The notes beneath the pieces are model-generated. The model was not told the origin of the DNA. It did no database searches and was given only the letters and a program-made list of their open reading frames with translations. A stretch of DNA of 64,000 nucleotides, taken from the NCBI GenBank assembly GCA_964427615.1, contig CAYRUR010000002.1, positions 17,847 through 81,846 of the forward strand, in the 5' to 3' direction. Each line of letters begins with the position of its first letter. The stretch's first letter is position 1. Source of the stretch: an uncultured Gammaproteobacteria bacterium. Lineage in GTDB: Bacteria; Patescibacteriota; Microgenomatia; Levybacterales; GWA1-39-11. The translations under genes were made by a program, and so were the position numbers. This document shows positions 3,624-49,638 of the stretch, in pieces.

Positions 3624-3677
3624 ATTTTAAATAGCGAGGTAGTCTAAGAATAGAGAAGCCATATTGCACATTAAAAG

Positions 3678-4352: not shown

Positions 4353-4365
4353 TTAGATTTGTACA

Positions 4366-4839
4366 TTAAAAGTTGGAGAATATTTGCACAGCAACATCAT
4401 CTTTTGTTGCAATACAAGAATATTTGTATGGTTTTTCTAAAGCTTTTCTGTGAGAGGGTGAATTAAGCCATGATTCAAGAGCTTTATCGTTTTCATACGC
4501 ACGAAAAATCATATTTTCAGATAGAACATAAGGATAACTGTAATATTTATCACGAAATCCCTGATGGTTATCTTCGCCATCATCAACCCTATCTTGTGCA
4601 ATAACACAAAGTCTCTCATCTTTTATATATGGTTGAAAGCCTTGCGATACCCGCCATTCATTGACGAGTGCCGTAAGTTTTTCAGCAGAAAGATGAATAA
4701 CTACCTGTGTTGGAGTTGGGACAGTAGGTGTGCCATAAGAAGTGGGCATTACTGAAGGAAAAACAACAGTCAACATGGTAGCAATTCCTAGTAATAGGAA
4801 GGAAAAAATAAAAAACAATACCGCTATCTTCTTTTTCAT
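4366..4839 (-). CDS. CAP/SCP (PR-1/YkwD-like) domain protein with N-terminal signal/TM
   Basis: 157 aa. N-terminal TM. Motifs ...NHQGF...SWLNSPSHRKALEKPYKYSCIA... resemble the CAP-domain HxxN and S..H signatures. First gene of the minus-strand trio. Confidence 0.5.
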   Translation of the reverse strand: MKKKIAVLFFIFSFLLLGIATMLTVVFPSVMPTSYGTPTVPTPTQVVIHLSAEKLTALVNEWRVSQGFQPYIKDERLCVIAQDRVDDGEDNHQGFRDKYYSYPYVLSENMIFRAYENDKALESWLNSPSHRKALEKPYKYSCIATKDDVAVQIFSNF

Positions 4840-4856
4840 AAGCTTATAGTAAAAAG

Positions 4857-4886
4857 ATTATAGCAAAAAAGTAAAGGAAAGTAAAC
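4857..4886 (-). promoter_or_regulatory. sigma70-like promoter (minus strand: GTTTAC-18-TATAAT) driving the 4839<-2955 three-gene cassette; shares the divergent region with the 4888 gene
   Basis: Plus-strand 'gtaaac' (4881-4886) and 'attata' (4857-4862) give a minus-strand -35/-10 pair. The start codon lies about 18 nt downstream. Confidence 0.35.
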
Positions 4887-4887
4887 T

Positions 4888-6135: not shown

Positions 6136-6147
6136 GAATTATGAAGT

Positions 6148-9100
6148 ATGGGTTTTTTAAACGATATCCTCAAGACTCTCAAGCGTAACACCCTTGATAA
6201 AACTGACCTTGACGAAAAGGCAGGAAGTTTCATATCCCAAAACGTAACTAGGCCGACAGTAAGAGGGTTGTCCGATATTAAGAACTTTATCAAAAGCCCT
6301 CAATCCATTGATTTACCTGAAGTTCCAGACTTTGCAAAGAGAGTAGGGGAGATAAATACGCCTTTTGGTAACTTCCAACCTCTTCCTTTTGTTCGTGATG
6401 TTGTTAATGAGCCTTTTAGTTTTGCTGCTAACACTGCATCTGACTTAGTACAAGCAGGAGTTAGGCTTGCCAAACAAAAACCCTACACACAATATCAAAA
6501 CCTCAAAAGTCCTGCTTCAAAGTTTGGATATAACATAGGGGCTCTTGCAAACCCTAGATTAAAAGAGCAGTTAGGTATTAAAAATAACCCTCAAGAAGTA
6601 ATAGCAAACGTTGCAGAAACAGTCATGGGTCCTCTATCAGTGTATGGGGGAGGAAAAATTTTTAGTACAGGAAAACAAGCACTGAAGCAATCAGGAGCAA
6701 AATCTCTGCGAAAAATACTAAAAAAAGAAGCGAAGATCAACGCCAAAATAGGTGGTTTTTATGGCTCTATGAGTGGGTTGGCAGAGGGACGAAATGATGA
6801 GTTGGGAGATCAACTTGTTAAAGGTGCAAGAGGTGGAGTAACTGGCATTATTGGAGGTGGAGCATTAGGAACCGCAATCCCCCTTGCAGGAGCAGGCACA
6901 AGACGTGCGTTAAACAGTCATAACAAAATGATGCGTGAGGAATCTCTTGAGCAATTTGCAAGAAACTTACCCAAATATTTAGAAACCCCTAAGCTGGATC
7001 CAGTTATTGCTAAATATAAGCGAGCATTGCAAGTTGATAAGCGTACAGCAAAAGAAATAAAGGAGGCAATATACCAAACATTTTCAGGGTACTTGGATAA
7101 AGGAGCTGATATACTAGACCGCTCAACAAAGGAATTTCTACCCCAATTTGATAACCTAGATCCAAGATCAAAAGCACATATTTGGGCTTATATCTTAGAC
7201 AGAAAGCAGAATCTAGGGAAAGTACCACCTCACCCACTTATTCAGGATTTGGATAACGCAATATTTAAAGTAGCAGGATTCGATGTTAGACAAAGTGGAA
7301 CTTTCGCAGGGCCAAAAGCTGCAGAATGGGCATTGAGAAAAACAGGAAAATTCACAAATCTTATGGACAAAAAACCACGTTTTGAGATTGATGATAGGAA
7401 ATCAAAGGTAGATTTGGGTGAAATATATACAAATGGATTTTACTCTGCAAGCTTAAATAAAGTACTCAAACACCCTGAATTGTTTAAACAATATCCAGAA
7501 CTTAAGGACATAAAAGTTAAGTTAGAGCCTCTAGATCTAGGAACAAATGGGTTTTATGATCCAAAAACAAATTCCATAACTATTAATGAGTTAGCAGTAG
7601 AAAGCGTTGACCCAAAACAGTTACTGCTTCATGAGGTTCAACATGTAATTCAAGGAATTGAGGGTTTTGCAAGAGGTGCAAGTGTTGGTATGGATGAAAA
7701 GGAGATTATAAGGAAATTCAGGCCAATGGTAGAGAATCTACCTGCATTCAGAGATTTAAAAACAGAGGTAGAAAAAAATGATTTCATTATCAATTTTGCA
7801 AGAAGTCAAACTAGATCTAACGACTTAAGAGAACTTGCTTATGATGCGTATAGGAAAAGTTCAGGAGAAATAGAATCTCGTTCTGTTGAGAACCGCATGG
7901 GTATGACACCTGAACAAAGAGCAACTACACTTCCTTACTCAGATCAAGGCATACCACTTAAAGACACCATTACACGACTTGATGACGGTTCTGTACAAGA
8001 AGATATCCCTCAAAACATACGAGAAATAGGAGGGAAAATAAAAGACTTTATTACTAGAAACTTCAGTAACAGGGAAAATACAAAACTTGAGTTATTTGAA
8101 GCACAGCCCAAAACAGTAGCTTTTATTCAAGAAAAGCTAGGTATTGATGTATCTAAATTTAAGCATACGATTGATAGTTTTGATGTTAGACATGCAACAA
8201 ATCGTCACTCAGCATTTAACAAAGGAAATCTTCAAAAAGGAGAAGTCCCTTTAACAATAGAAGACTTTGAAAATGTACCTCTTATACTTTCAAACCCTGA
8301 TAACATTAGACTTTCTTCAAAACCAACCAAACAGGGGAATTTTGCAATCATCTATCAAAAGAGAATTGGAAACGAAGTTTACTACGTGGAGGAAATACGA
8401 AACTCTTCAAGAACACTTGCATTAAAAACGATGTATAAACAAAAACCTTCCTCTGTAAGTTATAGTCTTGAAGACCCTAACTTTGTACGTCCGTCTGAAA
8501 AGACCCCGACTTCGGAAGGTAATGAAGGTATTATACCACAGGTTAGCAAGACTTCACAACCTATTAGTAACTTGGGGAATTTGTCCAGGCAACAGCTATT
8601 AAAAGTACAACCAAGAACAGTACGATTACAAGAACGATTGAACCCAAATAATCTTTCAAGTTCCAATCAGGTCCTTCCTGAAGTTCCCAGTAGTGTTTCA
8701 TTAAATGATAGTATACCACAGCTACCAGCACCTATGAATAGAATCGCTCTGCCAGGAGGGTTTGTCGCTAGAACTCCAGGAGAAGCAAAGCGTTTATTTA
8801 AAAAGACAGGACAAGCTCCTGAGTTAGATTTTTCTTTAAGAAATAGTAAAAAACCAATAGAAATAAAAGGGGAAGCTCAGTTCTATAATGCAGAACCAAA
8901 TTCAGCGAAACTTAAGATAAGATCACAAAAAGCAAAAGAGAATCAGTTTAAAACAGAGTTTGATGAATGGCAAGATCACTTATTTGATACCACAGGAGCT
9001 AGAACAGTAAAAGGAGCTATAGATGATGTGGCAAAGCTTATGGGAGAAGCAACAGAAGCAGGACAACGTAGAAGTTTTGAGAATACAAGCACAGGAAAAA

Positions 9101-11859
9101 TAATCAGTAACAAAGCAGGGCAGAAACTGCAAAAAGGATTTCTAGAAAGAGCTAAGAATTGGAAAGACAAACCAAAAGTTTTTTACGTAAGAGAACGTTT
9201 TGACAGAAACCTTGAAGATATAGCAGGAGAAGATGCGCCTATGCTTATCGAGAGGTATTTTAAACCAGTGCAAAAAGCAGAAGCTAACAGGCAAAGGTGG
9301 TTGAATCAAGAACGTACAGCAATCAAGAAACTTGACATCAAACCCGGTAGTGCAGAATCAAGAGTACTACAACTATATGGTGAAAGAAAGATGAGTCTTG
9401 ACAGACTTAAAAAAGAACTTCCTAATACTTGGCAAAAGGTAGTTGAGGCGGAAAAAATATTTAGAACAAAATATGACCAATACCTTGTTGATATCAATAA
9501 GGTGCTTGTGCGAAATGGATACGATCCCATTCCTAAAAGAAAAGACTACTTTATTCACTTTCATGATCTGAGCAATGTTTTAGAGCGGTTTGGTATTCCT
9601 GTACGAGACAACACCATTCCCACTGATATTTCAGGACTTACCGCAGACTTTAAACCAGGAAAAAACTTTTTCACCAGTGCACTCCCCAGAGAAGGAGACT
9701 TAACTGATTTTGACGCTGTTAAAGGTATGGACCGTTATCTTGAAGGAGCAAGCAAGCAGATTTTCCACACTGATAATATTCAGAATTTGAGATTATTTGA
9801 AAAGGGCTTAAGAGAACGATTTGCAGGCACAACTCACCTTTCTAATTTTGTTGCTGATCTAGGAGAATACATCAATAATTTAGCAGGCAAGAAATCAATG
9901 CTTGATAGAAGTGCTGAAGGATTAGTAGGTAGAAATGTCTATGCAGGAGCACAGCGAATTAGAAAACAGGTAGGAGCAAACATGGTGGGAGCTAATATAT
10001 CTTCTGCTTTAACAAATTCCATTCCTCTTACCCAATCTCTTGCTACAACTAGCAAACCAGCTTTTGTCAAAGGCATGTTAGGAGCTGTTATTTCTCCTTT
10101 AAAAAATGACGGATTTGCTCAAAAGTCAGACTTCTTAACAAGACGTTTTGGTTCAGATCCACTTTTTGTGAGAAATTGGGATAAGGTTGCAAATAAGGGT
10201 GCTTGGATTTTTAAAGTTGTTGATAGATTTGTCTCTGAAACCATTACTAGGGCAAAGTATCATGAAGGACTTTCAAAAGGCTTGTCTCCAGAACAAGCAC
10301 TTAAAAGAGCAGATGATTACGCATCACGCTTAATAGGGGATAGGTCTCTTGGTTCACAACCAACCTTATTTGACTCAAAAACAGCTGGATTTCTTACTCA
10401 ATTTCAACTTGAAGTTAACAACCAAGTATCAGTACTTATGAAGGATATCCCTCGCATGAATGAGGGAAACAAAGTAGCCATAGCTTCTGCATTAGGACAA
10501 GTGGCACTCTATTCCTATCTTTATAACAACCTCTATGAAAGCTTTTTTGGCAGAAGACCTGCTTTTGATCCATTAGGAGTAGGTATACAGGCATATGAGG
10601 ACTATACCAACCCCGATATGAAGGAAGGGCAGGCTACCAAAAACACTGCAATAAACATTGCAAGCCAACTTCCCTTTACCTCTGTTCTCACAGGAGGTAG
10701 ATTGCCTACTAATGCAGCTCTTCCCGATGTTTCTGCTCTTGTAAAAGGAGAGACAAGCGTAGGTAAAGAGTTGCTAAAGCCGGTAACCTACATATTTCCT
10801 CCCACAGGCGGAGGGCAGATTAAGAAAACAATCGAAGGAATTGGTGCATTTGCACAAGGTGGAAGTGTCAGCAAATCAGGGAGAGTGCGTTATCCTATTG
10901 AGCAAACGCCTGGTAATTTTCTAAGAACTGCCATTGGTGGGCAATACGCTTTACCACAAGCAAGAGAATACTTTAGAGAAGGAAGAACTCCTTTAGGTGA
11001 AGCTCAATCTGAAGCATTCCTAAATACACCTATAGATCAAAAGCAAGCTTTTTACGATACGATTATGCAGCAAAGAGCAGATAAAAGAGAGGATGACAGA
11101 ATAAATGATGCAATTAAATCTAATGGAGATGTATCACAGACAGGAGATATAATACGCTGGCTGGATGAAGAAGGAAGTGTTCAAACAGTAGATCTCTCAG
11201 AAAAAGCCATCTCTACCACCAAAAAAGGAATTGACGCCTATGATAAAGATAGTAGTAATAGCCCTGCTGCTAAAGCACGTAAAATCTTTTCTGCACCAGA
11301 GGATCAAGTATCCTCAGAACAAAAAGAGGCAATCTATAAAAAGTTTGGGTTCACAGCAGAAGATGTGCGCTACGACTATATCTCTCAAGATAAATTCTCC
11401 AACGATGAAAGAACTGCATATATTGTTGATAAAGATCTTAGCCATGATGAGCTTGTTGAGCGCATCTTAACAGGTAGACGGGAAAGTATCTCAGGTAAGA
11501 TGTTTGTGAGGGATGGAGTAATTGATAATTTGCGAGATTTAGGACTACTTAGCTACGGTGAGGCAAAACAACTAAAAGCAATTAAACTAGATAAAGATGG
11601 AAAAGCAAAAACAGGTTCAGGAAGAAAAGGATCAAATAAACAACTAAAAGCTATATTAAAATCAAAACAACAGGATGCAAAAGAATTGTCAGAACTTTTT
11701 GGATCACTTACTAAAAGCTCAGAAGGTAAAGCGAGAAGATCAAAAGCAGTAAATTTGGCGAGTGTACTTAATACAAAAAATAGTAATACTTCCTCTAAAA
11801 AACGCATAGAAGACGTATTGCGCCAAAAGCGTAAAATCGCTCCTATCAACTCAATATAG
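6148..11859 (+). CDS. giant phage internal virion/ejection protein (1903 aa) with HExxH zinc-metallopeptidase-like motif
   Basis: Uninterrupted 5.7-kb ORF. HEVQH motif encoded around 7630-7644. Lys-rich C-terminus. Position equivalent to T7 gp16 or a tape-measure protein. Confidence 0.7.
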   Translation: MGFLNDILKTLKRNTLDKTDLDEKAGSFISQNVTRPTVRGLSDIKNFIKSPQSIDLPEVPDFAKRVGEINTPFGNFQPLPFVRDVVNEPFSFAANTASDLVQAGVRLAKQKPYTQYQNLKSPASKFGYNIGALANPRLKEQLGIKNNPQEVIANVAETVMGPLSVYGGGKIFSTGKQALKQSGAKSLRKILKKEAKINAKIGGFYGSMSGLAEGRNDELGDQLVKGARGGVTGIIGGGALGTAIPLAGAGTRRALNSHNKMMREESLEQFARNLPKYLETPKLDPVIAKYKRALQVDKRTAKEIKEAIYQTFSGYLDKGADILDRSTKEFLPQFDNLDPRSKAHIWAYILDRKQNLGKVPPHPLIQDLDNAIFKVAGFDVRQSGTFAGPKAAEWALRKTGKFTNLMDKKPRFEIDDRKSKVDLGEIYTNGFYSASLNKVLKHPELFKQYPELKDIKVKLEPLDLGTNGFYDPKTNSITINELAVESVDPKQLLLHEVQHVIQGIEGFARGASVGMDEKEIIRKFRPMVENLPAFRDLKTEVEKNDFIINFARSQTRSNDLRELAYDAYRKSSGEIESRSVENRMGMTPEQRATTLPYSDQGIPLKDTITRLDDGSVQEDIPQNIREIGGKIKDFITRNFSNRENTKLELFEAQPKTVAFIQEKLGIDVSKFKHTIDSFDVRHATNRHSAFNKGNLQKGEVPLTIEDFENVPLILSNPDNIRLSSKPTKQGNFAIIYQKRIGNEVYYVEEIRNSSRTLALKTMYKQKPSSVSYSLEDPNFVRPSEKTPTSEGNEGIIPQVSKTSQPISNLGNLSRQQLLKVQPRTVRLQERLNPNNLSSSNQVLPEVPSSVSLNDSIPQLPAPMNRIALPGGFVARTPGEAKRLFKKTGQAPELDFSLRNSKKPIEIKGEAQFYNAEPNSAKLKIRSQKAKENQFKTEFDEWQDHLFDTTGARTVKGAIDDVAKLMGEATEAGQRRSFENTSTGKIISNKAGQKLQKGFLERAKNWKDKPKVFYVRERFDRNLEDIAGEDAPMLIERYFKPVQKAEANRQRWLNQERTAIKKLDIKPGSAESRVLQLYGERKMSLDRLKKELPNTWQKVVEAEKIFRTKYDQYLVDINKVLVRNGYDPIPKRKDYFIHFHDLSNVLERFGIPVRDNTIPTDISGLTADFKPGKNFFTSALPREGDLTDFDAVKGMDRYLEGASKQIFHTDNIQNLRLFEKGLRERFAGTTHLSNFVADLGEYINNLAGKKSMLDRSAEGLVGRNVYAGAQRIRKQVGANMVGANISSALTNSIPLTQSLATTSKPAFVKGMLGAVISPLKNDGFAQKSDFLTRRFGSDPLFVRNWDKVANKGAWIFKVVDRFVSETITRAKYHEGLSKGLSPEQALKRADDYASRLIGDRSLGSQPTLFDSKTAGFLTQFQLEVNNQVSVLMKDIPRMNEGNKVAIASALGQVALYSYLYNNLYESFFGRRPAFDPLGVGIQAYEDYTNPDMKEGQATKNTAINIASQLPFTSVLTGGRLPTNAALPDVSALVKGETSVGKELLKPVTYIFPPTGGGQIKKTIEGIGAFAQGGSVSKSGRVRYPIEQTPGNFLRTAIGGQYALPQAREYFREGRTPLGEAQSEAFLNTPIDQKQAFYDTIMQQRADKREDDRINDAIKSNGDVSQTGDIIRWLDEEGSVQTVDLSEKAISTTKKGIDAYDKDSSNSPAAKARKIFSAPEDQVSSEQKEAIYKKFGFTAEDVRYDYISQDKFSNDERTAYIVDKDLSHDELVERILTGRRESISGKMFVRDGVIDNLRDLGLLSYGEAKQLKAIKLDKDGKAKTGSGRKGSNKQLKAILKSKQQDAKELSELFGSLTKSSEGKARRSKAVNLASVLNTKNSNTSSKKRIEDVLRQKRKIAPINSI

Positions 11860-11902
11860 CCACAAAAAAGGCCACACACGTTAGCTTAAGAATAGAGGGA
11901 CT

Positions 11903-12817
11903 ATGATCTATCTTGCTAACGATAAATACAACGATGCTCTAACTTCCGGTTATACTGTGGGTCAATCAACCCTTTATATCTCAACTCCTCCTGATAACGT
12001 ACCAACTATTATTGTTGCAGCAAAAGGAACAGATAACGAGACCGTTTTCGCAGTAACCGGTAAAACAGTTAACTCACTTACTGGTGTTACAAGGCTTCGT
12101 GGTGCAAATGTAGACTTAGACGCTCAAACTCCTATTACCTGTCTTAATAATCAAGAGTTTGTAAATCAGTATGCAAATGCTGTATCCAGTGCTCAGTCCC
12201 TATCTGACATTATATTCGCAGTAGATGGAGGCTCTACTGACGACTACGCAATATCTGTTGATCCTGCTCCTTCTGCATATGTTGAAGGTAATCTTTTCTT
12301 ATTCAAAGCAAACACTGCAAACACTGGAGCTTGCACTTTAAATGTAAATGGACTTGGTGCAAAAGCATTAAAAATCAATAAAGATCAGGATCCTCCTAGT
12401 GGATATATCAAGGCAGGTTCAATTGTTGTTGTTGTGTACAACGGAACAAACTTTGAGATTGTGAGCGTAGCAACTTCTCCTGGTGTAACAAATGCTGAGA
12501 TAACAGCAATAGATGGCCCAACAGTAACCTTTGATCTTAATGCAACTAATAAGCATAAGGTTGTCTTAGGTGGTAATAGAATCCTAGCACTCTCAGGAGG
12601 GTATTTGGATCAATACTTCACTATTAAGCTAGTTCAGGACGCAACAGGAGGTAGAACACCCACTTGGTTCTCGGGAATTACATGGGCGGGCGGTTCTGCT
12701 CCCAGCCTTACTACAACTGCTAATAAAGCAGATAGATTCGGATTCATTGTTACAAGTGTTGATGCAAGCGGAGTACCAAACGCATTTGAAGGACATGTGA
12801 TTGGGCAGGATATATAA
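11903..12817 (+). CDS. phage tail fibre / receptor-binding-like protein
   Basis: 304 aa, beta-rich, G/T/N/A-rich. Downstream of the internal virion proteins. 'agaggga' SD. Confidence 0.45.
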   Translation: MIYLANDKYNDALTSGYTVGQSTLYISTPPDNVPTIIVAAKGTDNETVFAVTGKTVNSLTGVTRLRGANVDLDAQTPITCLNNQEFVNQYANAVSSAQSLSDIIFAVDGGSTDDYAISVDPAPSAYVEGNLFLFKANTANTGACTLNVNGLGAKALKINKDQDPPSGYIKAGSIVVVVYNGTNFEIVSVATSPGVTNAEITAIDGPTVTFDLNATNKHKVVLGGNRILALSGGYLDQYFTIKLVQDATGGRTPTWFSGITWAGGSAPSLTTTANKADRFGFIVTSVDASGVPNAFEGHVIGQDI

Positions 12818-12819
12818 CT

Positions 12820-13977
12820 ATGGCACAACTTCAATTCAGGTCTGACGACACAATTGAATGGAAAGAAGGATTTGGAAACGGTAAAGACGGAGATTTGGTT
12901 ATTTCTACCAATAGTACTTTTTCTGCTGCTAATGCTGGTTGTGTTGGCGCCTTGGGCACCAAAACTTTGACGCTTGATGCTATCTCAACTTTTGCCAATG
13001 GAGACTTAATCCTAATTCATCAGTCACGAGGTGTAGGCGCTGGCAGCTGGCAGTTAAACAAAATTCTATCAGGAGCAGGCACCACTACTCTTACCTTAGC
13101 CCATGACCTAACCAACACCTACACTGACTCAGGGGACTCTCAAGCTCAAGTCTTACAACTCAAACAGTACCGCTCAGTGACAGTTAATACAGGAGTTACC
13201 TGGACAGTCCCTGCCTGGGATCAAAATAAGGGTGGTATTATCGCCTTTTTATGTAAAGGGACTACAACTATCAATGGCACGATTGATGGGGCCGCAGGTA
13301 CCTCTCAAGGACAGGTTAAAGGAGGATATCAAGGAGGTAAAGGACTTAGTGCTCAAAATGCCTGGTCTGGAGAAGGAACAGCGGGCGCAGCCAAGGTTAC
13401 TGATGGCTTTAGTAACGGGAGTGGAGGAGAAGGTGGACATGATTATCAAAACAACGCTGGAGCTGGAGGAGGAAATGGAACTGCTGGTCAAAGTGTTACA
13501 GGTAGAGCTGGTGGTTCAGTTTCAGGCAATACTGAGTTAACGCTTATTACTTTTGGTGGTGGTGGTGGAGGTTCTGGGTATGATGGTGGAGTTGGAGGAA
13601 ACGGTATTTGGGGAGGTGGCGGAGGTGCTCTTGGTATTATCATCTCCAAAGACTTTACCTGTGCTTCTGCTAACTCAATTACCTTTAATGGCTCTAATGG
13701 GTTTGCTGAATTTCAATCAGCAGGTGGAGCAGGAGCAGGGGGCTCACTCTTGCTTAAAGGAGAAACTATTAATGTTGGTTCAGGAAAGATCGTGGCTGTA
13801 GGCGGGAGTGGAGTGAGTGGAAGCTTAAAAACCAGTGGTAATGGAGGCACAGGCCGTATCCACGCTGACTACAGCAAGTCCATATTAGGCACTACTAGTC
13901 CTACGATTGACAGCAGGCTAGACCCAACGATTAAAGAAATGACATCTGGAGGATCATTTTTATTGAATTTTATATAA
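12820..13977 (+). CDS. glycine-rich phage tail fibre-like protein (beta-helix / Gly-repeat)
   Basis: 385 aa with GGxGG runs (GGGGGSGYDGGVGGNGIWGGGGGALG). Typical of phage fibre or depolymerase stalks. Confidence 0.45.
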   Translation: MAQLQFRSDDTIEWKEGFGNGKDGDLVISTNSTFSAANAGCVGALGTKTLTLDAISTFANGDLILIHQSRGVGAGSWQLNKILSGAGTTTLTLAHDLTNTYTDSGDSQAQVLQLKQYRSVTVNTGVTWTVPAWDQNKGGIIAFLCKGTTTINGTIDGAAGTSQGQVKGGYQGGKGLSAQNAWSGEGTAGAAKVTDGFSNGSGGEGGHDYQNNAGAGGGNGTAGQSVTGRAGGSVSGNTELTLITFGGGGGGSGYDGGVGGNGIWGGGGGALGIIISKDFTCASANSITFNGSNGFAEFQSAGGAGAGGSLLLKGETINVGSGKIVAVGGSGVSGSLKTSGNGGTGRIHADYSKSILGTTSPTIDSRLDPTIKEMTSGGSFLLNFI

Positions 13978-13979
13978 CT

Positions 13980-14237
13980 ATGGCAAAAATTGAACTTGAA
14001 CTATTAGAAAAACTCTTTGACGCAAAACTTGCGCCTATTGCTGAAGATGTTAAGAACATTAAACAAGCAATTAACGGTAATGGCAAACCGGGACTTAAAC
14101 AGAGAGTAATGACACTTGAGGATCAACACCAAGGTATCACAAAGAAGTTTGCTATTGCTACAGGCGTGCTTAGTCTCACTCTTATGACAGTTTTTGAAAT
14201 AGGAAGAAAGTTCTTAGAGAAAAAAATAGGATTATGA
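13980..14237 (+). CDS. small protein with C-terminal TM helix; holin/lysis-associated candidate
   Basis: 85 aa. Hydrophobic segment ATGVLSLTLMTVF. Sits immediately upstream of the amidase gene, overlapping it by ATGA. Confidence 0.35.
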   Translation: MAKIELELLEKLFDAKLAPIAEDVKNIKQAINGNGKPGLKQRVMTLEDQHQGITKKFAIATGVLSLTLMTVFEIGRKFLEKKIGL

Positions 14238-15391
14238 AAAAAGTTTGTATTGCAGTAGGACATTGGAATATAGAAGGTATAACCTCACAAGGTCTTAGAA
14301 AGTGGAGAAGGGTAGATGCGCTTAAAAAATCTACTGGTGCAAGTGGGGAGCGGAATTATCACTGGGATAAAGTTATGCCTCTATTGAGAGATAAGCTTAT
14401 CAAAGCAGGAATTCAAGTACATATTACTGATGCTATATACAGTAATGACATATACAAACAAGACTACGACTTATTAATTGCACTCCATTATGATGGTGGA
14501 GGGACTGAAAATAGGTGCATGATTTCCTCTCCCTTAAGAGGCGTAAATCCTCCTTACCTATATAAAGAAGCCCATGACAAAGCGGATGAATTCTGTCGAA
14601 TTTGGAAAGAGATTTACCCTGCCATGACAGGAGCCATTAATAGAGATAATCGCATTACTGCTGGCATGACAGAGCATTATTTATGGGATTACGTGAAAGA
14701 AGGTACTCCCGCAGTTCTTATTGAACACTTTAACCATACCTCCGCAAAAGGACAAGAACTTAAGAATAATCCAGGGTTAGTAGCAGAAGCAGATTTTCAA
14801 GCAATAGTTAAATTTTTAGGTATTCAAGTAGAAAGCCCTAAACCTCAACAAGAACCAACAATGACTATCTCAGTAGTTGAGCGTGATTGGTTAGTGAGTC
14901 GTGCAACAACCGCCAAAGAAGTTGCCCAGTACCTAGAGATAGACAACCCAGACCATGCCCCCTTTGACACCTATAAAAAAGTAATTGCAGGTATCAAAAG
15001 TACTGCTACAGCAATCCAAACGCAACTTACGGATACTCTCGAAAAACTTGCTGAAGCAACTCAGGAAATAGCCAATAGAAAAGAACAGGTTAGCAGGTTA
15101 GAAAACCTAGTGACAGAGAAGCAAAAATACTATTTAGCCCAGATTGATAGTCTAAATAAGAACTTCAAAAACACCCCAGAACTGATGAGGGTAGCAGAGG
15201 GCAGGATAGCAGCACTGGAAGGGCAGTTAGATCAAGCACAAAAAGACAAAGGGAAGGCATTAAATCAGGTAGCAATACTACAAGCAAGCCTTGATGCATG
15301 TCAAAAGGCGAATACTCAAAAACTTGATACAAATACTCTCATTGTGGAGCTTATTAAAAGGGTTATTCCATTGGTTAAAAAAGGACTATGA
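14234..15391 (+). CDS. putative endolysin: N-acetylmuramoyl-L-alanine amidase (Amidase_3-like) with long C-terminal coiled coil
   Basis: CIAVGHWN, LIALHYDGG and VLIEHFNHTS resemble the Amidase_3 Zn-ligand blocks. C-terminal ~180 aa is heptad-rich. Confidence 0.5.
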   Translation: MKKVCIAVGHWNIEGITSQGLRKWRRVDALKKSTGASGERNYHWDKVMPLLRDKLIKAGIQVHITDAIYSNDIYKQDYDLLIALHYDGGGTENRCMISSPLRGVNPPYLYKEAHDKADEFCRIWKEIYPAMTGAINRDNRITAGMTEHYLWDYVKEGTPAVLIEHFNHTSAKGQELKNNPGLVAEADFQAIVKFLGIQVESPKPQQEPTMTISVVERDWLVSRATTAKEVAQYLEIDNPDHAPFDTYKKVIAGIKSTATAIQTQLTDTLEKLAEATQEIANRKEQVSRLENLVTEKQKYYLAQIDSLNKNFKNTPELMRVAEGRIAALEGQLDQAQKDKGKALNQVAILQASLDACQKANTQKLDTNTLIVELIKRVIPLVKKGL

Positions 15392-15651
15392 ATATTGTCA
15401 GATCAATCAATAACAAAAAATACAGGGCTGTTAGAGCTGAGAAGCAAGGGGAGGATGTAGCTGTCTATTATAGACTGGTCTACTTCACAGGTGAAGTAAG
15501 AAAAATGCTTGGCATACCATACCACGTACTACTTGCAGCAATACGCAATCTAAACATTAAGCGAGCTGGTAGGGATTATCTATTAACTCAAGACGACATT
15601 AAAAAAATTAAAAAAGTGATTGGAGGTGATAAGCATGAGATTACCAACTAG
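15388..15651 (+). CDS. small phage protein, possible HTH DNA-binding (Xis/terminase-small-like)
   Basis: 87 aa. 'MLGIPYHVLLAAIRNLNIKRAGRDYLLTQDDIKKI' looks like a helix-turn-helix. ATGA overlap with the upstream gene. Confidence 0.35.
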   Translation: MNIVRSINNKKYRAVRAEKQGEDVAVYYRLVYFTGEVRKMLGIPYHVLLAAIRNLNIKRAGRDYLLTQDDIKKIKKVIGGDKHEITN

Positions 15652-15883
15652 AGATAGCGCAGCAGGAAAAGGAATTGCAACAGCATTACAAGCCCTGTGT
15701 GGCTTTATATTTGGCTTGGTGTTAGTTGTATGGAACGTGCCAGGAGTACCACAAGCAGTCTTTGGGTACGTACAGAATAACGTAATTGCATTAATTATGT
15801 TTTTCGGAGTTCCAATGGCAATAGCATCAGGAGTTGTAGGTTTTGTTATGAACCTTATTAGAGAAGAAGTTAAAAACTACTAA
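15635..15883 (+). CDS. small membrane protein (2 predicted TM; holin/spanin-like candidate)
   Basis: ORF-track 15620..15883. The internal ATG at 15635 is preceded by a ggaggtga SD. Two hydrophobic helices. Confidence 0.4.
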   Translation: MRLPTRDSAAGKGIATALQALCGFIFGLVLVVWNVPGVPQAVFGYVQNNVIALIMFFGVPMAIASGVVGFVMNLIREEVKNY

Positions 15884-15897
15884 AACATAAACTAATT

Positions 15898-16251
15898 ATG
15901 GTTGAGAAAAAATACGACTTCACAAACGAAGACGATAGAGCATTGTATCAGTATGCTAAAGGTAATGCGTGGGAACACAATACTCGAAACCTTGAGATAG
16001 CTCAACAAGTTATTAACCCTTCAAGCGAGTCTTTTATTGTCAGGGACTACGACAATTACGGTAATGAAATAGACCTCAAGATAGATAATCAATTTCTCTT
16101 TGGAATGCACCTTATAAAACAAATCCTCATTAAAGAAATCGCTGAATCAGGCGGAGAAGGTGAAGCATACGCTCAAGAACTGCAAGATAAACATTTTGTT
16201 GAAATGATGGAGGGCAGGGATTACCCACTCCCCATACCAGTACATAAATAG
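15898..16251 (+). CDS. hypothetical phage protein
   Basis: 117 aa, acidic, no recognisable motif. Confidence 0.4.
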   Translation: MVEKKYDFTNEDDRALYQYAKGNAWEHNTRNLEIAQQVINPSSESFIVRDYDNYGNEIDLKIDNQFLFGMHLIKQILIKEIAESGGEGEAYAQELQDKHFVEMMEGRDYPLPIPVHK

Positions 16252-16262
16252 AAGGAGGCAGT

Positions 16263-16655
16263 ATGGTAAGACGCAAAGAACACTTTCCCCGACACGTAAG
16301 ACGGGAAATGCGTCAGGAACAAGACTATGCCTGTGCTATTTGTGGCACTTCTTGTCGAGGACATAAATTCAATGAACCACCCCTAGAAGCTCATCACATC
16401 ATCCCTGTTAGTAAAGGTGGAACTCACGAAAAACATAATTGTGTAGGGTTATGTAACGAGAATTCATGCCATGAAACAGCTGATTATGTAGCGATTAAAG
16501 AAGGAAAATTCTTTGATGAAGTAGTAATGACTGAGGGAGTTGAATATTATTTAAATCATCCGATGAGAGAGGTATTTATGGATAGAAGGAGACGGAGAGA
16601 GTTAGTTAGGATGAACGAAATTAGGGATGAGTTGTATTCGATGGTGGCGGATTAG
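16263..16655 (+). CDS. HNH endonuclease
   Basis: CAICG...HHIIPVSKGGTHEKHNCVGLCNENSCH is the HNH/Cys-box motif. gaaggagg SD. Such genes typically sit at a phage genome end near packaging genes. Confidence 0.75.
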   Translation: MVRRKEHFPRHVRREMRQEQDYACAICGTSCRGHKFNEPPLEAHHIIPVSKGGTHEKHNCVGLCNENSCHETADYVAIKEGKFFDEVVMTEGVEYYLNHPMREVFMDRRRRRELVRMNEIRDELYSMVAD

Positions 16656-16719
16656 TAGTAATTCAAGATGCTACTAAGATATCAGTAGCATTAATAGTAG
16701 TAATTATAGGCAGTTTGCG

Positions 16720-16737
16720 AGTGACATTGATGTCACT
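16720..16737. repeat. perfect palindrome AGTGACAT-TG-ATGTCACT, flanked by 11-bp direct repeats TAGTAGTAATT (16656-16666 and 16696-16706)
   Basis: Read directly. Lies just after the HNH stop at the edge of the phage module. Confidence 0.6.
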
Positions 16738-16894
16738 ACCAAATAAGACCCTAGAGTAAAATAAACCTTTCAAAAATCAGGTTCAAATACACAGCTATAA
16801 ATAACTCTCCCTATACCCTTTTCTAAGGCAGTAATTGATAGAGTAGTCCTACTCAAACTAAATAAGCTTTTCACACGCCTTTTAGCCTCAGAAT

Positions 16895-16924
16895 TTGACA
16901 TATTATGATCTGGTTATATATAAT
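16895..16924 (+). promoter_or_regulatory. near-consensus sigma70 promoter TTGACA-18-TATAAT
   Basis: TTGACA at 16895-16900, TATAAT at 16919-16924. Followed by the aaaggaggtga SD and a small ORF. Confidence 0.5.
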
Positions 16925-16951
16925 CCCGCCCTTGAAAGGAGGTGATGTAAA

Positions 16952-17098
16952 GTGTTCATGACGTTATTTAAAATTCAAAGGTATTGCATAGGTCGTGAAA
17001 AGTCAGCATCCACAAACCAACAAAAAGCCGTTTGGAGCCTAAGTGGGGGAATTTCAAGGTCATTGTTTTATGTTTATTTAGCAATTTTTAAATATTAA
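16952..17098 (+). CDS. small ORF (~48 aa, GTG start; alternative ATG at 16958) downstream of a strong promoter and SD
   Basis: VFMTLFKIQRYCIGREKSASTNQQKAVWSLSGGISRSLFYVYLAIFKY. Not in the ORF track (<60 aa). The expression signals are unusually strong for a 'non-coding' region. Confidence 0.25.
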   Translation: MFMTLFKIQRYCIGREKSASTNQQKAVWSLSGGISRSLFYVYLAIFKY

Positions 17099-17902
17099 AA
17101 CAATAAGGAAAATAAACCTGCCCATATTTTCCCTCTTGACATTTGCACGCTTATGTCGTAAAAGTATTATTGTGCGACATATTATATTGTACTATCCTAC
17201 TGGGTAAGAGTAGTATTTTTTAATGCAACATATTCGTTTCATTCTTATTACAAATACACATTATTTGTGGTACCGAGAGGTATAATTTTGCTCCTATCTT
17301 ATACCTCTCTCAAGGGTCTTTTCGTAAGGCCCAAATGATACAAAAAAAGTAAGAAAATTAAGGCAGATAGCACTCCATAAGGTAATATGTTAAATATAAT
17401 TTACATCACTCGTTTGGAGCATAAAATCAGTGTTTTTTGAATATTTAGCTTCAAATTTTAGTAGAATAGTACCTTTTGTAAAGAGGTAGATGAGGCTAAA
17501 ATGTAAAAGCTTGTTCGATTTTTTTTCGTATTACACTCGGCAAAGAGAAAGAGATAAAAATATCACATGCAGCTACATACTGACAAGGGCGTGAAAACTC
17601 GCCTCTTTGTACCTGTGAAAAGTGAAGTTTTCCACATTATTAAAATTATAGGTCTATTTTATTTATTATAGGTCTATATTTTGATAGTATCAAACTATAT
17701 CATCTTACTCCCCTCTCCTACTCATTTCTCCCCTCTATTCTGCTCGTTTTCTAAGTACAAATCAGGTACAAAATTATTTTCAAAAAATCCTTTATTTGAA
17801 AATAAAAAAGATACACCTTCCAAATGCTTAAAGATAGCTAGAATTAGCCCTCAACATCCATATCCACTCTCTACCCCAAAATCTAGGTTCAAATAGGTTC
17901 AA

Positions 17903-18300
17903 AAAATGAGTATTAAGTATTAAGAAGTAAGTATAGAAAGAAATTCAAAACGCAAAAGTAAAAAGTCAAAAGTTTTGAAATAAACTTCCACCTTATAAAA
18001 TTTGTCATTCCAGACTTGATCTGGAATCCATGTCTTCATTCTCTGGATCCTGGATCAAGTCCAGGATGACATATTTATGTTTGTTTTAATAACTGTTCTA
18101 AACCCCAACCGCTAAACACTTGTTTTCTATGCTCTATTTTCTGTTTACTGCTTTCTGACTTCTTTTCATTCTTAAATCTTGAATCATAAATCCTAAATCT
18201 TATTTTCTGTTCTCTGTTTACTGTTTACTGTTTTCTTTTCCTAATTCTTAATTCATAATTCTTAATTCGTTTCTCTAATCCCTAATCTCTAAACACTCCT
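17903..18300. repeat. composite intergenic word-repeat element, long copy (gagtattaagtatta / aaaacgcaaaag / ttctgtt-ctctgtttactg / cttaaatc / cttaattcataattc / ctctaatccctaatc modules), including the hairpin element 18004-18070
   Basis: Homologous module by module to 40908-41068, 44921-45100 and 49385-49635. Confidence 0.6.
18004..18070. repeat. MITE-like double-hairpin element GTCATTCCAGA...TCCAGGATGAC
   Basis: Imperfect terminal inverted repeats (gtcattccaga / tccaggatgac). Two perfect 7-bp stems: TTCCAGA-cttga-TCTGGAA and TCCTGGA-tcaag-TCCAGGA. Confidence 0.55.
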
Positions 18301-18313
18301 TTACTTCCCACCG

Positions 18314-20957: not shown

Positions 20958-21785
20958 CTATTTAAGGAGCTCTTCATGTAAATAAACACTTACATCTGCT
21001 GCTGCAGGTGAAGGACTATAAACAACCGGAATATTTAAAATACGTCCTAGACTGCGGATAGTTTCATTCTCAGGAATCCTTGCAACAATCTGCGATTTAT
21101 CCTTTTTTTCACCGTTTTTGACAAATATGATATTATAACCACCATTTTTAAGCATATGAGAGACATCACCTGCAAATCCATTTACAGAAGTCAGATTTAC
21201 TACCTCCACACTTGTCCCTTCATTAATGATCTCAATACTACGGAATAACTCATTTACTGCATCAATGACGGTTTGATTTCCACTTTGTGTACGAGAGAGC
21301 TCCTGATATACGACTGTTTTTTCTTCAACTTCATCAATAGAACGAGCTAAAAAGAACAATTTGGCAAGATCAAAATTGTTTAAATGTACTCTTGCGTTAT
21401 CAGAAGTAAATAATAGACCAAAGAAAGAACTATAAGAAAAAAAGTCTTTTTTAATATCAGTTGTACTATTAGCTTTTTGCAGTTTGATACTTGCATCCAA
21501 AGGTATTCCTAACGCAATACTTTTTTGTAACAAAGACTTACCATCAAAATCGCCAGGAATGCTCTCAACCTTCAAAACTGCAATTTTTTTACGTTCTTTA
21601 TCTACTTTTATAACAGTAGTTTTATCCGCCTCTACAAGAAAAGTATAGAAAGATGAAGTAAAACTTCTATTTTGAAAAGAAAAAAAAGCCTTACCGCTTA
21701 AAGAAATCAATAAAGCAATGCTTAACAGAAAAAGAAACACCTTTATATATCTCAAATTTGCATGAGTGTTTTTTTTATGAACCAT
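20958..21785 (-). CDS. membrane-anchored protein, possible LytR_C-like C-terminal domain
   Basis: 275 aa. N-terminal TM. C-terminal 'VEVVNLTSVNGFAGDVSHMLKNGGYNII' resembles the LytR C-terminal domain. Weak support. Confidence 0.4.
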   Translation of the reverse strand: MVHKKNTHANLRYIKVFLFLLSIALLISLSGKAFFSFQNRSFTSSFYTFLVEADKTTVIKVDKERKKIAVLKVESIPGDFDGKSLLQKSIALGIPLDASIKLQKANSTTDIKKDFFSYSSFFGLLFTSDNARVHLNNFDLAKLFFLARSIDEVEEKTVVYQELSRTQSGNQTVIDAVNELFRSIEIINEGTSVEVVNLTSVNGFAGDVSHMLKNGGYNIIFVKNGEKKDKSQIVARIPENETIRSLGRILNIPVVYSPSPAAADVSVYLHEELLK

Positions 21786-21805: not shown

Positions 21806-22022
21806 AAATTCTAAGCACGAAATTCTAAATTTTAAAAGTTATCGTCATCGCGAAGAAAAGCTTGTTCCCGTGGCGATCTCTTTTTGCAAGGGGATTGCTT
21901 CGTCCGTTTTACTTACTCGCAATGACGGATACCATTCTCTTCTTGCTTTATAAACTTTACAAACTTTCTACTACCTCCAACTCGTTAACTCTTTAACTAG
22001 CAACCCATTAACTAACTTGTCC
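21806..22022. repeat. composite intergenic repeat (aattctaaa words + GTCAT hairpin element + aactcgttaactctttaactagcaaccc module)
   Basis: Same architecture as 49385-49635 and 33200-33383. Confidence 0.55.
21842..21928. repeat. MITE-like element TCGTCATCGCGAAG...GGGGATTGCTTCG...CTCGCAATGACG (87 nt)
   Basis: Terminal inverted repeats cgtcatcgcgaag / ctcgcaatgacg. Second copy at 49426-49504 shares all four conserved blocks. Confidence 0.55.
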
Positions 22023-23696
22023 CTAGCTAAACGCTGCTGCCCCTTTTTGCTTCAAAAGCCGGATTTTATCAAGATTATCTTCTTCTATAATATGAGCCAC
22101 GTGCACACCTCCTGAAAAATGAGGAATAACTACATAATCAGCTCCATGTTTGTACAGCATTTTTTCATCATCTCCATTTTGAGCAAACACAATAACTTTT
22201 GCTTTTTTATTCATCTTATGAATGGAATCAAGCAAAATAAGATTATCCTTTACATCAGGAACTGTCGAGATAATCACTTTAGCAGTATGCAAATGTGCTT
22301 TTTCTTGAATCTCATGATCCGCAATATCACCAAATAATGATAATCCATTTTTCTCTTGTATTTTTTTCACGATATCCGGATTGAAATCAACTACTACAAA
22401 GGTGTGACTACTCTGCTCTAGTGCATGTAAAATACTCATCCCAGTTCTATTGGCGCCAATTAACACTACATGATCTTTCAATTCACCCAATTCCATATGG
22501 TGCTCTACTCCCTTCTTTCTTTCCATAAAGGAAAGATAGCGATGCATTTTTTTATAAATATCATTTCCATGTAAAATAAAGTAAGTAGAGAAAACAAAAG
22601 TAACAACGCCAACAAAAGTAATAGTCGAAACAACCTCTGCAGGAATATGTCCTAAATTATGTCCCATGAAAGCAAGAATAAAACTAAACTCAGAAATTTG
22701 ACCCAAAATTAGTCCGGTAAAAAAGGACGTTCTCTTACGATACCCCATCAGTCCTAAAATAGAAATGACTACAAGAGGGCCTCCTATAAGCACAAAAAAT
22801 GACAGAATAGTTGCTGGAATGACAATAGAAAGCATATCAGCAAAAACCATGTTCATTCCCAGTGATACAAAAAACAACGTGATGAAAAAGTCTCGCAGTG
22901 GTCTCACACGTGCACTGATTTGGAAATGCTCTGTGGAATTAGCTAGTGCAAGACCCGCTAGAAACCCTCCGATTTCAATTGAAAATCCAATCAATGGGGA
23001 ACTCACCAACGCCGCCACACCAAAAGCCCATGCAATGCTAAATAGAAATAACAGTTCTGAAGAACTTGAAACATAACTAATAATTTTAGGAAGTACATAC
23101 TTACTCAAATAAATAACAATTCCAAAAAGTGCAGCAACTTTTGCCAACACAAATGCAAAATCAAAAATAGTTAACCCAGATGAATTCTCAAATCCGGAAA
23201 GAATAACCAAAGTGAGAATAGCAACAAAATCCTGAATCAGTAAAATTCCAATTGCAATTTTTCCGTATAAGCTGTTGAGATCTCGTTTATCAGATAATAA
23301 TTTAACAATAATAATTGTACTGGAAAATGTTAATCCAATGGCAAGATATACTGAAGAAACGAGAGAAAAACCCAGAGCTAGAGAAAGCAAAAAACCTAAG
23401 AGTGCGGTAATAACTACTTGTCCTACTCCAGCAACGACCGCAACTTTACCTACTGATTTCAATTCCTGGAATCGCAACTCCAATCCTAAAGTAAATAACA
23501 AAAGTGTAATACCAAATTCTGATAACACCTGTAATACTTCCTGCCCATCACGAATTTGAAAAAGAGCTAAAGGTCCTACAATAATACCAGTGAGAAGGTA
23601 GGCAAGAATTGGTGGCTGTTTTAAAAAACGAAAGATAAGAGAAAAAACAACTGCAATACAAATTACACTGGTAATTTCAAAAAAAATAAATTCCAT
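22023..23696 (-). CDS. Kef-type monovalent cation:proton antiporter (CPA2) with C-terminal RCK/TrkA-N domain
   Basis: 557 aa. 12-13 TM helices followed by a soluble Rossmann-like domain (VVLIGANRTGMSILHAL). Confidence 0.8.
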   Translation of the reverse strand: MEFIFFEITSVICIAVVFSLIFRFLKQPPILAYLLTGIIVGPLALFQIRDGQEVLQVLSEFGITLLLFTLGLELRFQELKSVGKVAVVAGVGQVVITALLGFLLSLALGFSLVSSVYLAIGLTFSSTIIIVKLLSDKRDLNSLYGKIAIGILLIQDFVAILTLVILSGFENSSGLTIFDFAFVLAKVAALFGIVIYLSKYVLPKIISYVSSSSELLFLFSIAWAFGVAALVSSPLIGFSIEIGGFLAGLALANSTEHFQISARVRPLRDFFITLFFVSLGMNMVFADMLSIVIPATILSFFVLIGGPLVVISILGLMGYRKRTSFFTGLILGQISEFSFILAFMGHNLGHIPAEVVSTITFVGVVTFVFSTYFILHGNDIYKKMHRYLSFMERKKGVEHHMELGELKDHVVLIGANRTGMSILHALEQSSHTFVVVDFNPDIVKKIQEKNGLSLFGDIADHEIQEKAHLHTAKVIISTVPDVKDNLILLDSIHKMNKKAKVIVFAQNGDDEKMLYKHGADYVVIPHFSGGVHVAHIIEEDNLDKIRLLKQKGAAAFS

Positions 23697-33199: not shown

Positions 33200-33383
33200 G
33201 TGGAACGTTATTTCTCGACAAGCTCGAAATATAAAGATTTTATTTTTCGACCAAGCGAAGTGCGTGGAGAAAATTTATTATTTCAAAACTGAGGAAAACT
33301 AAACCCTAAGCACTAACCCCTAACCGCTCCTTCTTCTTTCCAACTCGTTAACTCTTTAACTCGCAACCCGTTAATTTATATAT
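33200..33383. repeat. composite intergenic repeat (cgaagtgcgt hairpin module + ctaagcactaacccctaacc words + aactcgttaactctttaactcgcaacccgttaa module)
   Basis: Module matches 21971-22022, 45060-45100 and, reverse-complemented, 19240-19262. Confidence 0.55.
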
Positions 33384-36545: not shown

Positions 36546-36571
36546 ATTATAGTCTCCTTAAAATAATGTCA

Positions 36572-36603
36572 TTCTGGCAAACGAAGTGCGTCCAGAATCT
36601 TTT
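36572..36603. terminator. rho-independent terminator-like hairpin TTCTGG-caaacgaagtgcgt-CCAGAA followed by TCTTTT, between convergent genes
   Basis: 6-bp stem plus T-run, 26 nt after the 36545 stop. Also part of the GTCAT/cgaagtgcgt repeat family. Confidence 0.45.
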
Positions 36604-40907: not shown

Positions 40908-41068
40908 GTGAGTATTAAGTATTACTGAAAACTTAAATCGCAAAACGAAAAGCGCAAAACTAAAACGTAAATCTAAAAATTATTCTAGCAACTATAAATT
41001 CTTAATTCCTGATTCATAATTCTTAATTCATTTCTCTAACCCGTTAACTAACTCTAATAACTAATCCC
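40908..41068. repeat. composite intergenic word-repeat element in the rpsF / htrA divergent region
   Basis: gagtattaagtatta...caaaacgaaaagcgcaaaac...cttaattcctgattcataattcttaattc...ctctaacccgttaactaactc. Confidence 0.55.
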
Positions 41069-49635: not shown

Positions 49636-49638
49636 ACG

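Follow-up and report, generated by a model that had tools for sequence, protein, structure and literature searches.

Repetitive extragenic palindromes (REPs) are among the commonest bacterial repeats. The GTAG-tagged REPs are mobilised or maintained by Y1 HUH transposases of the REP-associated tyrosine transposase (RAYT) or IS200 type, and REPIN families are lineage-specific and vertically inherited. Intergenic mosaic elements are represented by the bacterial interspersed mosaic elements (BIMEs) of Escherichia coli, the Neisseria intergenic mosaic elements (NIMEs), and the rhizobial intergenic mosaic elements (RIMEs), and REPs have been reported to serve as landing sites for site-specific elements in Pseudomonas and, in the case of the CGTC-1 REP dRS3, in Neisseria. 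For the CGTC branch of REPs, no mobilising enzyme is known to our knowledge. In the published family description (Di Nocera, De Gregorio & Rocco 2013, PMC3733652), CGTC-tagged REPs have a tag that is left unpaired (CGTC, or else TGTC or CCTC), a stem of 8-9 bp that begins with AT, a loop of 4-5 nt, and a 3-nt unpaired tail of CCA-like consensus. They mostly form head-to-head dimers with the tags outside and the partners 1-100 bp apart, lie between unidirectional or convergent ORFs with some in-frame intragenic copies, are present in tens to thousands of copies within one genome, and occur in five phyla, with Neisseria dRS3 (CGTC-1) and the Rickettsia palindromic elements RPE-4 and RPE-6 as members. 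Here, we describe two short intergenic elements, A and B, in a 64-kb stretch (the window) of contig CAYRUR010000002.1, which GTDB places in the Patescibacteriota. We think it probable that A and B are head-to-head dimers of REP-type hairpins with their tails facing each other, similar to REPINs or BIMEs, and that they belong to a pan-bacterial family of selfish DNA copied in trans.

As the first-pass annotation of the window had recognized, A and B have four conserved blocks in common, which are identical or one base apart and are separated by variable spacers: GTCATCGCGAAG (21844-21855 and 49427-49438), GTGRCGATCTCTTT (21870-21883 and 49453-49466), GGGGATTGCTTCG (21890-21902 and 49474-49486), and CTCGCAATGACG (21916-21927 and 49493-49504). 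Each block has two exact copies in the 64 kb, where shuffled sequence yields ≈0.7-1.7 matches even with two mismatches permitted, and the segments between the blocks are only ≈45% alike. The words aattctaaa that had been seen ahead of both copies are indeed present, and the similarity of A and B continues for ≈40 nt leftward (repeat D6). Both elements are oriented on the plus strand, and each is intergenic and flanked by co-directional minus-strand ORFs, which encode a Kef/NhaP-type antiporter (22023-23696) and a LytR_C protein (20958-21785) in the case of A, and a DHH-like product (49639-50565) and a product without a Pfam match (48656-49315) in the case of B.

The anatomy of the two elements is established (Table 1). 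Each is composed of two half units, the general form of which comprises (C/T)GTC as a tag that stays unpaired, a foot stem of 5 bp (ATYGC/GCRAT), a purine loop (GA on one side, G(A/T)(A/G) on the other), a variable apical hairpin, and a C-rich tail that reads CTC or CCC in the window copies. The internal loop that follows the foot stem is of 2x3 bases. The halves within one element differ in type, the left one combining ATCGC/GCGAT with a GA/GTG loop and the right one ATTGC/GCAAT with a GA/GAA loop. The apical hairpins are partly decayed in the window, and a clean GGAAC/TTCC stem is kept by B-left only (GGAAC-tttaa-TTCC), in which one foot-stem pair is broken (C.A, from GTGACGAT). Taken as whole elements, A folds with z-scores of -2.9 (plus strand) and -3.0 (minus strand) and B with -3.7 and -3.4, respectively; in the minimum-energy folds, the left half pairs with the right half, such that one long hairpin is possible.

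Table 1 Coordinates of REP-type units and adjoining modules (window positions unless a locus is named; R1 is the covariance model described in the text)
Feature	Position	Strand	Evidence or remark
Element A, 85 nt, two REP-like half units joined head-to-head as a heterodimer with outward tags	21843-21927	+	both halves matched by covariance model
Outer tags of A, CGTC at both ends	21843-21846 (A-left tag); 21927-21924	+; -
A-left half unit, ATCGC type	21843-21880	+	R1 match 21841-21882 (+), 23.8 bits, E 1.7e-4
A-left stem, ATCGC with GCGAT	21847-21851; 21873-21877	+
A-left loop, GA / GTG	21852-21853; 21870-21872	+
A-left degenerate apical segment	21854-21869	+
A-left tail, CTC	21878-21880	+
A-right half unit, ATTGC type: CGTC ATTGC GA GTAAGTAAAACGGAC GAA GCAAT CCCC	21890-21927	-	R1 match 21889-21929, 49.1 bits, E 1.3e-11
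Element B, head-to-head heterodimer, 79 nt, oriented like A	49426-49504	+	covariance-model matches, both halves
Outer tags of B, TGTC and CGTC	49426-49429; 49504-49501	+; -
B-left half unit, ATCGC type, tag TGTC	49426-49463	+	R1 match 49424-49465, 23.4 bits, E 2.1e-4
B-right half unit, ATTGC type: CGTC ATTGC GA GTGTAAGC GAA GCAAT CCCC	49474-49504	-	R1 match 49473-49506, 35.0 bits, E 1.2e-7
Promoter-like word module TTTAAA-17-TAGAAT, directly downstream of A in flanking-gene sense	21808-21836	-	homologous to module beside B (repeat D6)
Promoter-like word module TTTAGA-17-TAGAAT, directly downstream of B	49391-49419	-
Canonical CGTC-type REP head-to-head dimer: tGTC ATTCCAGA cttga TCTGGAAT CCA / spacer / TGG ATCCTGGA tcaag TCCAGGAT GACa	18003-18071	+	published grammar
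Single GTC-tagged unit, 7-bp stem: GTC ATTCTGG caaaCGAAGTGCGT CCAGAAT CTT	36568-36601	+	R1 match weak, E 2.7
In-frame REP dimers of locus L208	451-546; ≈741-819		within ORF L208:82-1347

The first-pass annotation had taken GTCATCGCGAAG and CTCGCAATGAC for the terminal inverted repeats of an element resembling a MITE (miniature inverted-repeat transposable element). As classically defined, a MITE is a deletion derivative of a DDE-type insertion sequence that is mobilised via its terminal inverted repeats. The complementarity of the ends GTCATCGCGA and TCGCAATGAC at 10 of 11 positions, the size of 79-85 nt, the intergenic location, and the lineage-specific occurrence all suit this description. 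However, because units of this kind recur as inverted pairs, singly, and in same-strand arrays (the arrays in loci such as L056, L143, and L207), each of GTCATCGCGAAG and CTCGCAATGAC is the foot of its own autonomous hairpin and not a transposon end. Moreover, an element's halves are of different types (ATCGC and ATTGC), no direct repeat that could be a target-site duplication flanks either copy (...aagttat / ggatacc around A, ...agaatat / ttttgtt around B), and neither the window nor ≈200 loci retrieved from other genomes contain a transposase gene or parent insertion sequence with such ends. A and B resemble the MITEs of DDE transposons in their small size and inverted-repeat look and differ from them in the points just listed, and we consider a MITE origin very improbable. 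The ends of A and B (YGTCAT ... ATGACR) also differ from those of integron attC sites (RYYYAAC ... GTTRRRY), and the window contains no integrase gene.

On its purine-rich strand, the unit that recurs in other genomes reads (C/T)GTC - ATTGC - GA - hairpin - GAA or GTG - GCAAT - CYC. Its smallest common form, GTCATTGCGAGCGAAGCGAAGCAATCCC, is shared letter for letter by Calothrix, Anaerolineae, Acetobacteraceae, Phycisphaerae, and delta-proteobacterial metagenome-assembled genomes (MAGs), among others. The apical hairpin ranges from 4 to 45 nt across the family, free in sequence while its pairing is kept. Of 125 unselected partner halves, 117 carry C or T in front of GTC, and the tails read TCC, CCC, TCG, TCA, or CCA, with CCAG in alphaproteobacterial copies. 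We built a covariance model, R1, from 58 partner halves of other phyla with no window sequence included; these halves, on which the exact search pattern was not imposed, were chosen for their approximate similarity to GTCATTGCGAG and GAAGCAATC, the foot blocks, with a total of at most four mismatches. Membership of A and B in the family is established: with filters off, R1 has exactly four significant matches in the window, which are the four halves of A and B (E 1.3e-11 to 2.1e-4), and the next best match has an E value of 0.5.

The folding of the unit is conserved. In an alignment of the 58 halves with the four window halves (A3, 62 rows), 84% of the cells are paired, in comparison with 70% in column shuffles and 24-52% with slid partners, and double-sided changes fill 99 cells versus 36.5 expected, a number reached by none of 500 shuffles. 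Such double changes occur in all seven apical pairs. The foot pair T-A switches to C-G jointly (111 T-A, 7 C-G, and few mixed cases), and two nominal stem positions are conserved as tandem G.A/A.G. Because the halves used for R1 were picked by foot-block match, the foot-stem statistics are partly conditioned, the apical hairpin being unconstrained. Since pairing and compensatory changes both exceed those of the shuffles, we conclude that a folded single strand is under selection. The compensatory changes that the first-pass annotation called for are found, to a strong degree; they speak for a folded single strand and do not separate RNA from single-stranded DNA. No significant difference is seen between G.T (13) and A.C (7), the counts that bear on the strand of action. 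Under RNA parameters, 226 of 313 units (72%) fold better as the purine strand than as its complement, and under DNA parameters 83% do, a preference that largely reflects one conserved loop. Two known RNA motifs were set aside by inspection only: the GA...GAA flanks recall the borders of hammerhead stem II, but the CUGAUGA core of the ribozyme is missing, and a k-turn would require a larger loop.

We scanned one genome per species for GGGATTGCTTCG N1-30 CGCAATGAC, a pattern derived from the right half. The matches listed include at least 120 loci from about 15 phyla, where ≈8 would be expected by chance (our own estimate for 21 fixed bases in 596 Gb). The same pattern occurs in 82 viral contigs, and plasmid-borne units are found in Novosphingobium, Methylocystis, Methylosinus, Halomonas, and Aulosira. 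Phyla from Patescibacteria to Proteobacteria share an identical core of 28 nt, and the complete A/B-type heterodimer is also present in MAGs of Gammaproteobacteria, Betaproteobacteria, and Gemmatimonadetes and in three metagenome contigs. The earlier view of A and B as a repeated, structured, and probably mobile family of miniature elements is borne out in this respect, as further copies do exist in other genomes. An inverted upstream partner accompanies 125 of 235 selected halves at a median spacer of 22 nt, an arrangement identical to that in the window, and the remaining units are single or in same-strand arrays. The predominance of head-to-head pairs is established, with 53 such arrangements across the loci versus 29 tandem and 7 tail-to-tail; these counts are lower bounds because nhmmer found only one of the four window halves. 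In crude ORF calls, the units lie between convergent genes in 23 cases and between divergent genes in 9.

Several loci show unusual arrangements. In L143 (IMG/VR contig 3300035498_002011), about ten units between positions 2397 and 10280 are all on the gene strand, and most of them occupy the tip of an outer palindrome (roughly CCGCCC(T)TAC...GAGGGCGG) and look as though they had been inserted into hairpins already present. The bioreactor-metagenome contig L207 holds ten units within ≈800 nt between two genes (10553-11313), with tandem and head-to-head arrangements mixed. The dimers of Mucilaginibacter spp. (L046, L050, L067, L080-L084, L093, and L117) have a minimal apex, GAGGTACGAAG, and a conserved spacer of ≈45 nt with its own hairpin (ctgtacagag...ctctgt); because spacer and hairpin are kept across species of the genus, this dimer of ≈100 nt behaves as one unit.

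Comparison with relatives of the host indicates that units of this kind come and go. The window locus is identical in the Logan assembly of SRR7082976, and the best homologues of the antiporter, at 55-60% identity, come from Candidatus Levybacteria, Microgenomates, and Woesebacteria, which assigns the window to a Patescibacteria bacterium and rejects the cyanobacterial origin that the heptamer-like words might suggest. In the syntenic relative L210, the gene order is kept (M17 peptidase, EF-P, MFS, LGT, pseudouridine synthase, antiporter, LytR_C, YebC, and DUF5656), and only 6 bp separate the antiporter stop from the LytR_C start, compared with 237 bp in the window. Given this 6-bp junction and the absence of any R1 unit from 45.8 kb of three relatives, the intergenic mosaic that contains A is specific to its lineage; A and B are part of such a mosaic, and their lineage-specific presence is established. 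A near-identical heterodimer, reading GTCATCGCGAAG...GTGGCGATCTCTTTTTG...GGGATTGCTTCG...CGCAATGAC, lies in frame inside a DUF2298 membrane-protein gene of a Roizmanbacteria-like metagenome contig (L208), where it encodes the peptide ...VIASEAKQSLPAGRQGQKEIATATSSLRDD..., and a second dimer, of ATCCC type, is in frame in another loop of the same gene. Both dimers are absent from an 82%-identical homologue (L209) and from seven of eight other homologues, and in P0127, a more distant homologue, the same loop contains a decayed copy. The in-frame presence of the dimer in a gene whose close homologues lack it is therefore established, and the comparison shows insertion/deletion dynamics. The L208 dimer is in this regard similar to the RPEs of Rickettsia, being translated in frame in a protein whose close homologues lack it; the window elements differ from RPEs in that they are intergenic and belong to another host phylum and another sequence family.

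These observations also bear on an alternative in which A and B are structured RNAs or cis-regulatory elements that serve the host, for example as an intercistronic stabiliser, a processing site, or a terminator-like insulator, with a universal factor that binds the tag, foot, and purine loop. In that case, copy number would reflect recruitment rather than selfish spread. The identity of the 28-nt core across phyla is the strongest argument for such a role, and the strong covariation, the invariant purine loop, the better folding of the purine-loop strand under RNA parameters, and the preference for unidirectional or convergent gene contexts are in line with it, as are the position of both window copies just upstream of a promoter-like module and the uniform gene-strand orientation of the L143 copies. 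However, a search of Rfam 15 at gathering and E-value thresholds returned only two tRNAs in the window, the best match in the element region being a snoRNA model at E 0.18, and no match in eight element-rich loci. Single units show no consistent orientation to the flanking genes (17 versus 12), and dimers present both strands. No T-tract terminator is found at A or B, the element is absent from the orthologous junction of L210, and the in-frame copy in a membrane-protein gene sits poorly with a dedicated role as RNA. The same evidence tells against the suggestion in the first-pass annotation that A and B might belong to a structured small RNA family, and we regard a function for the host as unlikely.

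Despite clear similarities to described REP systems, A and B do not fall fully within any of them. In common with REPINs, two inverted hairpin units form a larger hairpin with an unpaired tag beside the stem foot, and the elements are non-coding, non-autonomous, and free of target-site duplications. They differ from the REPIN-RAYT system in that the tag is CGTC or TGTC in lieu of GTAG, no RAYT gene is found in the window or the retrieved loci, and the family core is nearly identical between phyla. Similar to BIMEs, NIMEs, and RIMEs, A and B place REP-type hairpins among other short modules between genes, here heptamer-like words and a promoter-like module, although the accompanying modules are unrelated in sequence and the host is a reduced-genome bacterium of the candidate phyla radiation (CPR). 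The promoter-like module of A is a neighbour of the repeat unit proper and lies outside it, and the words of B's module also occur at 44962-44999 and 55601-55638 without any REP dimer (repeat D4).

The closest resemblance is to the CGTC-tagged superfamily as its published description presents it (PMC3733652). The tag, the AT at the start of the stem, the ATCGC/GCGAT foot, the head-to-head dimers, the gene context, the occasional in-frame copies, and the lack of a linked transposase are all shared. The differences lie in the foot stem of A and B, which has 5 bp followed by the GA/GAA (or GTG) loop and a variable apex of 4-45 nt, in a tail that is likewise short and C-rich but reads CYC instead of CCA, and in a distribution beyond the five phyla that includes Patescibacteria, Chloroflexota, Cyanobacteria, and phage contigs. 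Because the purine loop interrupts the stem and a free hairpin caps it, A and B fall outside the strict stem and loop definitions given there. The signature peptides of the A/B family are absent from the intragenic table of that article, and string searches of the literature covered, with the block sequences and the translated peptides, gave no relevant match. We file A and B as a putative compound-stem variant in or next to the CGTC-tagged REP superfamily, a placement made against the text of the published description; their kind is a known one, and the variant and its breadth appear undescribed.

Overall, the window contains two dimers of the A/B family together with one dimer and one single unit of related families. 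The dimer at 18004-18070 fits the published CGTC description throughout, with two perfect stems (ATTCCAGA/TCTGGAAT and ATCCTGGA/TCCAGGAT), a CTTGA loop on each, and a CCA tail. Its loop is that of CGTC-3, as back-translated from the published peptide VIAGLDPAI to GTCATCGCCGGGCTTGACCCGGCGATC. Judged by its letters, this dimer is a textbook CGTC-tagged REP of a family other than that of A and B but of the same superfamily. The first-pass annotation was correct that its stems are perfect, although their length is 8 bp and not 7, and its view that this dimer and the hairpin at 36569 are related to A and B stands at the level of the superfamily and not of the family. The latter unit (36568-36601) is superfamily-like and not a member of the A/B family, given that its R1 match is only weak. 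A further element proposed at 33241-33270 has only the loop word CGAAGTGCGT in common with 36582 and is not a GTC-tagged unit. This 10-mer has exactly two copies in the window (33256-33265 and 36582-36591), each in a hairpin loop, and five matches with at most one mismatch versus 0.8 expected; L208 has a similar word, CGAAGTGG, at the apex of its second in-frame insert. There is no enrichment of GTC before perfect hairpins in the window, the convincing cases being only 18004 (two units) and 36568.

The 18004 dimer is also pertinent to the possibility that the hairpins are recombination or integration targets, that is, landing sites for site-specific elements such as IS110-family elements and phages, and are not mobile units themselves. 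The dimer is located at a switch of gene strand and GC skew, adjoining a plus-strand and partly phage-like gene block, and a phage-type integrase is encoded on that side in the syntenic L210. Units are present in many viral contigs, and dRS3 is a CGTC-1 member (PMC3733652). Conversely, no insertion sequence or prophage junction is demonstrated at A or B, genes of the IS110 or integrase type are absent from the window, and a role as a landing site would explain a use of the units but neither their origin nor their multiplication. We give this explanation little credence.

Our preferred reading, that A and B are selfish REP-type dimers copied in trans, implies an enzyme, and several observations weigh against this reading. 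The ≈60 ORFs of the window, compared with Pfam and NCBIfam, include no Y1, DDE, IS110, or integrase domain; they are housekeeping genes (aminoacyl-tRNA synthetases, ribosomal proteins, SSB, DnaB, DnaX, EF-P, and RF-1) or have no match in these databases. All-against-all clustering of the ORFs at ≈200 loci revealed no recurrent protein family within 1.5-2.5 kb of the unit, except for generic families (ABC ATPases and response regulators) and for the structural genes of a single phage clade, in which the unit is carried vertically. The cognate transposase anticipated in the first-pass annotation was accordingly not encountered in the window ORFs or these loci, and no autonomous insertion sequence with A/B termini is present in the window or in ≈1.5 Mb of retrieved loci. 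Nor does the published description link a transposase to CGTC REPs (PMC3733652). Recent transposition is not shown because the variable segments are only ≈45% alike while the blocks are identical, and the window copies are old. The near-identity of the 28-nt core across phyla is unusual for REPs and could reflect a host function, and the compound stem and variable apex violate the strict CGTC definition, in which the stem has 8-9 bp and the loop 4-5 nt. Copies in the source genome are counted over the 64-kb window, and the exact filled and empty junctions of L208 and L209 are not placeable to the base because the compared sites lie in diverged loops. A separate candidate, a link of these repeats to neighbouring genes for small GIY-YIG nucleases, was not borne out by the clustering of neighbouring ORFs in this sample.

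In the mechanism we propose for selfish REP-type dimers, the units would be non-autonomous DNA whose single strand folds into a hairpin and is copied in that form by an enzyme that works in trans and recognizes the tag together with the stem foot, by analogy with the RAYT/IS200 enzymes that act on GTAG REPs. Phages or plasmids may ferry units between phyla, and units would persist where hairpins are tolerated, such as at gene 3' ends and in segments that encode loops. Where transcribed, they would form intercistronic stem-loops, and in the window, a stem-loop between the end of a minus-strand gene and the next promoter-like module could mark the 3' end of the upstream message. A bolder version, in which the ATTGC-GA unit, with tag, foot stem, and a tandem G.A purine loop as its conserved parts, is a universal, horizontally circulating hairpin module that is borne by phages and read by an undescribed class of enzyme, seems to us distinctly unlikely. 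If true, it would answer what mobilises CGTC-type REPs and would explain both the identity of the 28-nt core between Patescibacteria and Proteobacteria and the in-frame settling of units in protein genes.

Other features of the window concern its mosaic composition. At ≈17-18 kb, gene orientation and GC skew switch from plus-strand genes and positive skew on the left to minus-strand genes and negative skew on the right. The left block (1-18300) contains an HNH endonuclease gene (16263-16655), an ORF of 1903 aa (6148-11859), and a weak SU10-adaptor-like match (285-968), and in L210, the phage-type integrase is encoded on the left-block side of the DUF5656 gene. This arrangement, with the 18004 dimer at the junction, could be an integrated element or a replication terminus. 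A 44-nt repeat (CTCCAACTCGTTAACTCTTTAACT.GCAACCC.TTAAC...), conserved at 84-86%, is found at 21975-22018, 33338-33381, and 45057-45100; two copies begin 2-4 nt after the minus-strand stop codons of the antiporter gene and dnaB, and plus-strand genes flank the third. Heptamer-like word repeats (taattct, aatcata, ttctgtt, and aaattct) build intergenic regions at 18071-18313, 40991-41049, 44962-45072, 49505-49645, 54142-54185, and 55601-55638, which is unusual for a CPR genome, and on the minus strand, sigma-70-like motifs (TTTAGA-17-TAGAAT) arise from the aaattcta words. Between dnaX and ybeY is an ORF (55643-56011) whose product belongs to the 23S rRNA intervening-sequence protein family.

For the CGTC branch of REPs, a compound-stem member that is nearly letter-identical over ≈15 phyla, phage contigs, and reduced CPR genomes, and that also occurs in frame, offers a sharp probe for the enzyme. 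Gene callers turn these units into spurious peptides (VIASEAKQS and DCFAxLAMT) or inflated ORFs, and a model such as R1 would flag them. CPR genomes, which are usually called repeat-poor, can hold mosaic intergenic regions built of REP dimers and word repeats.

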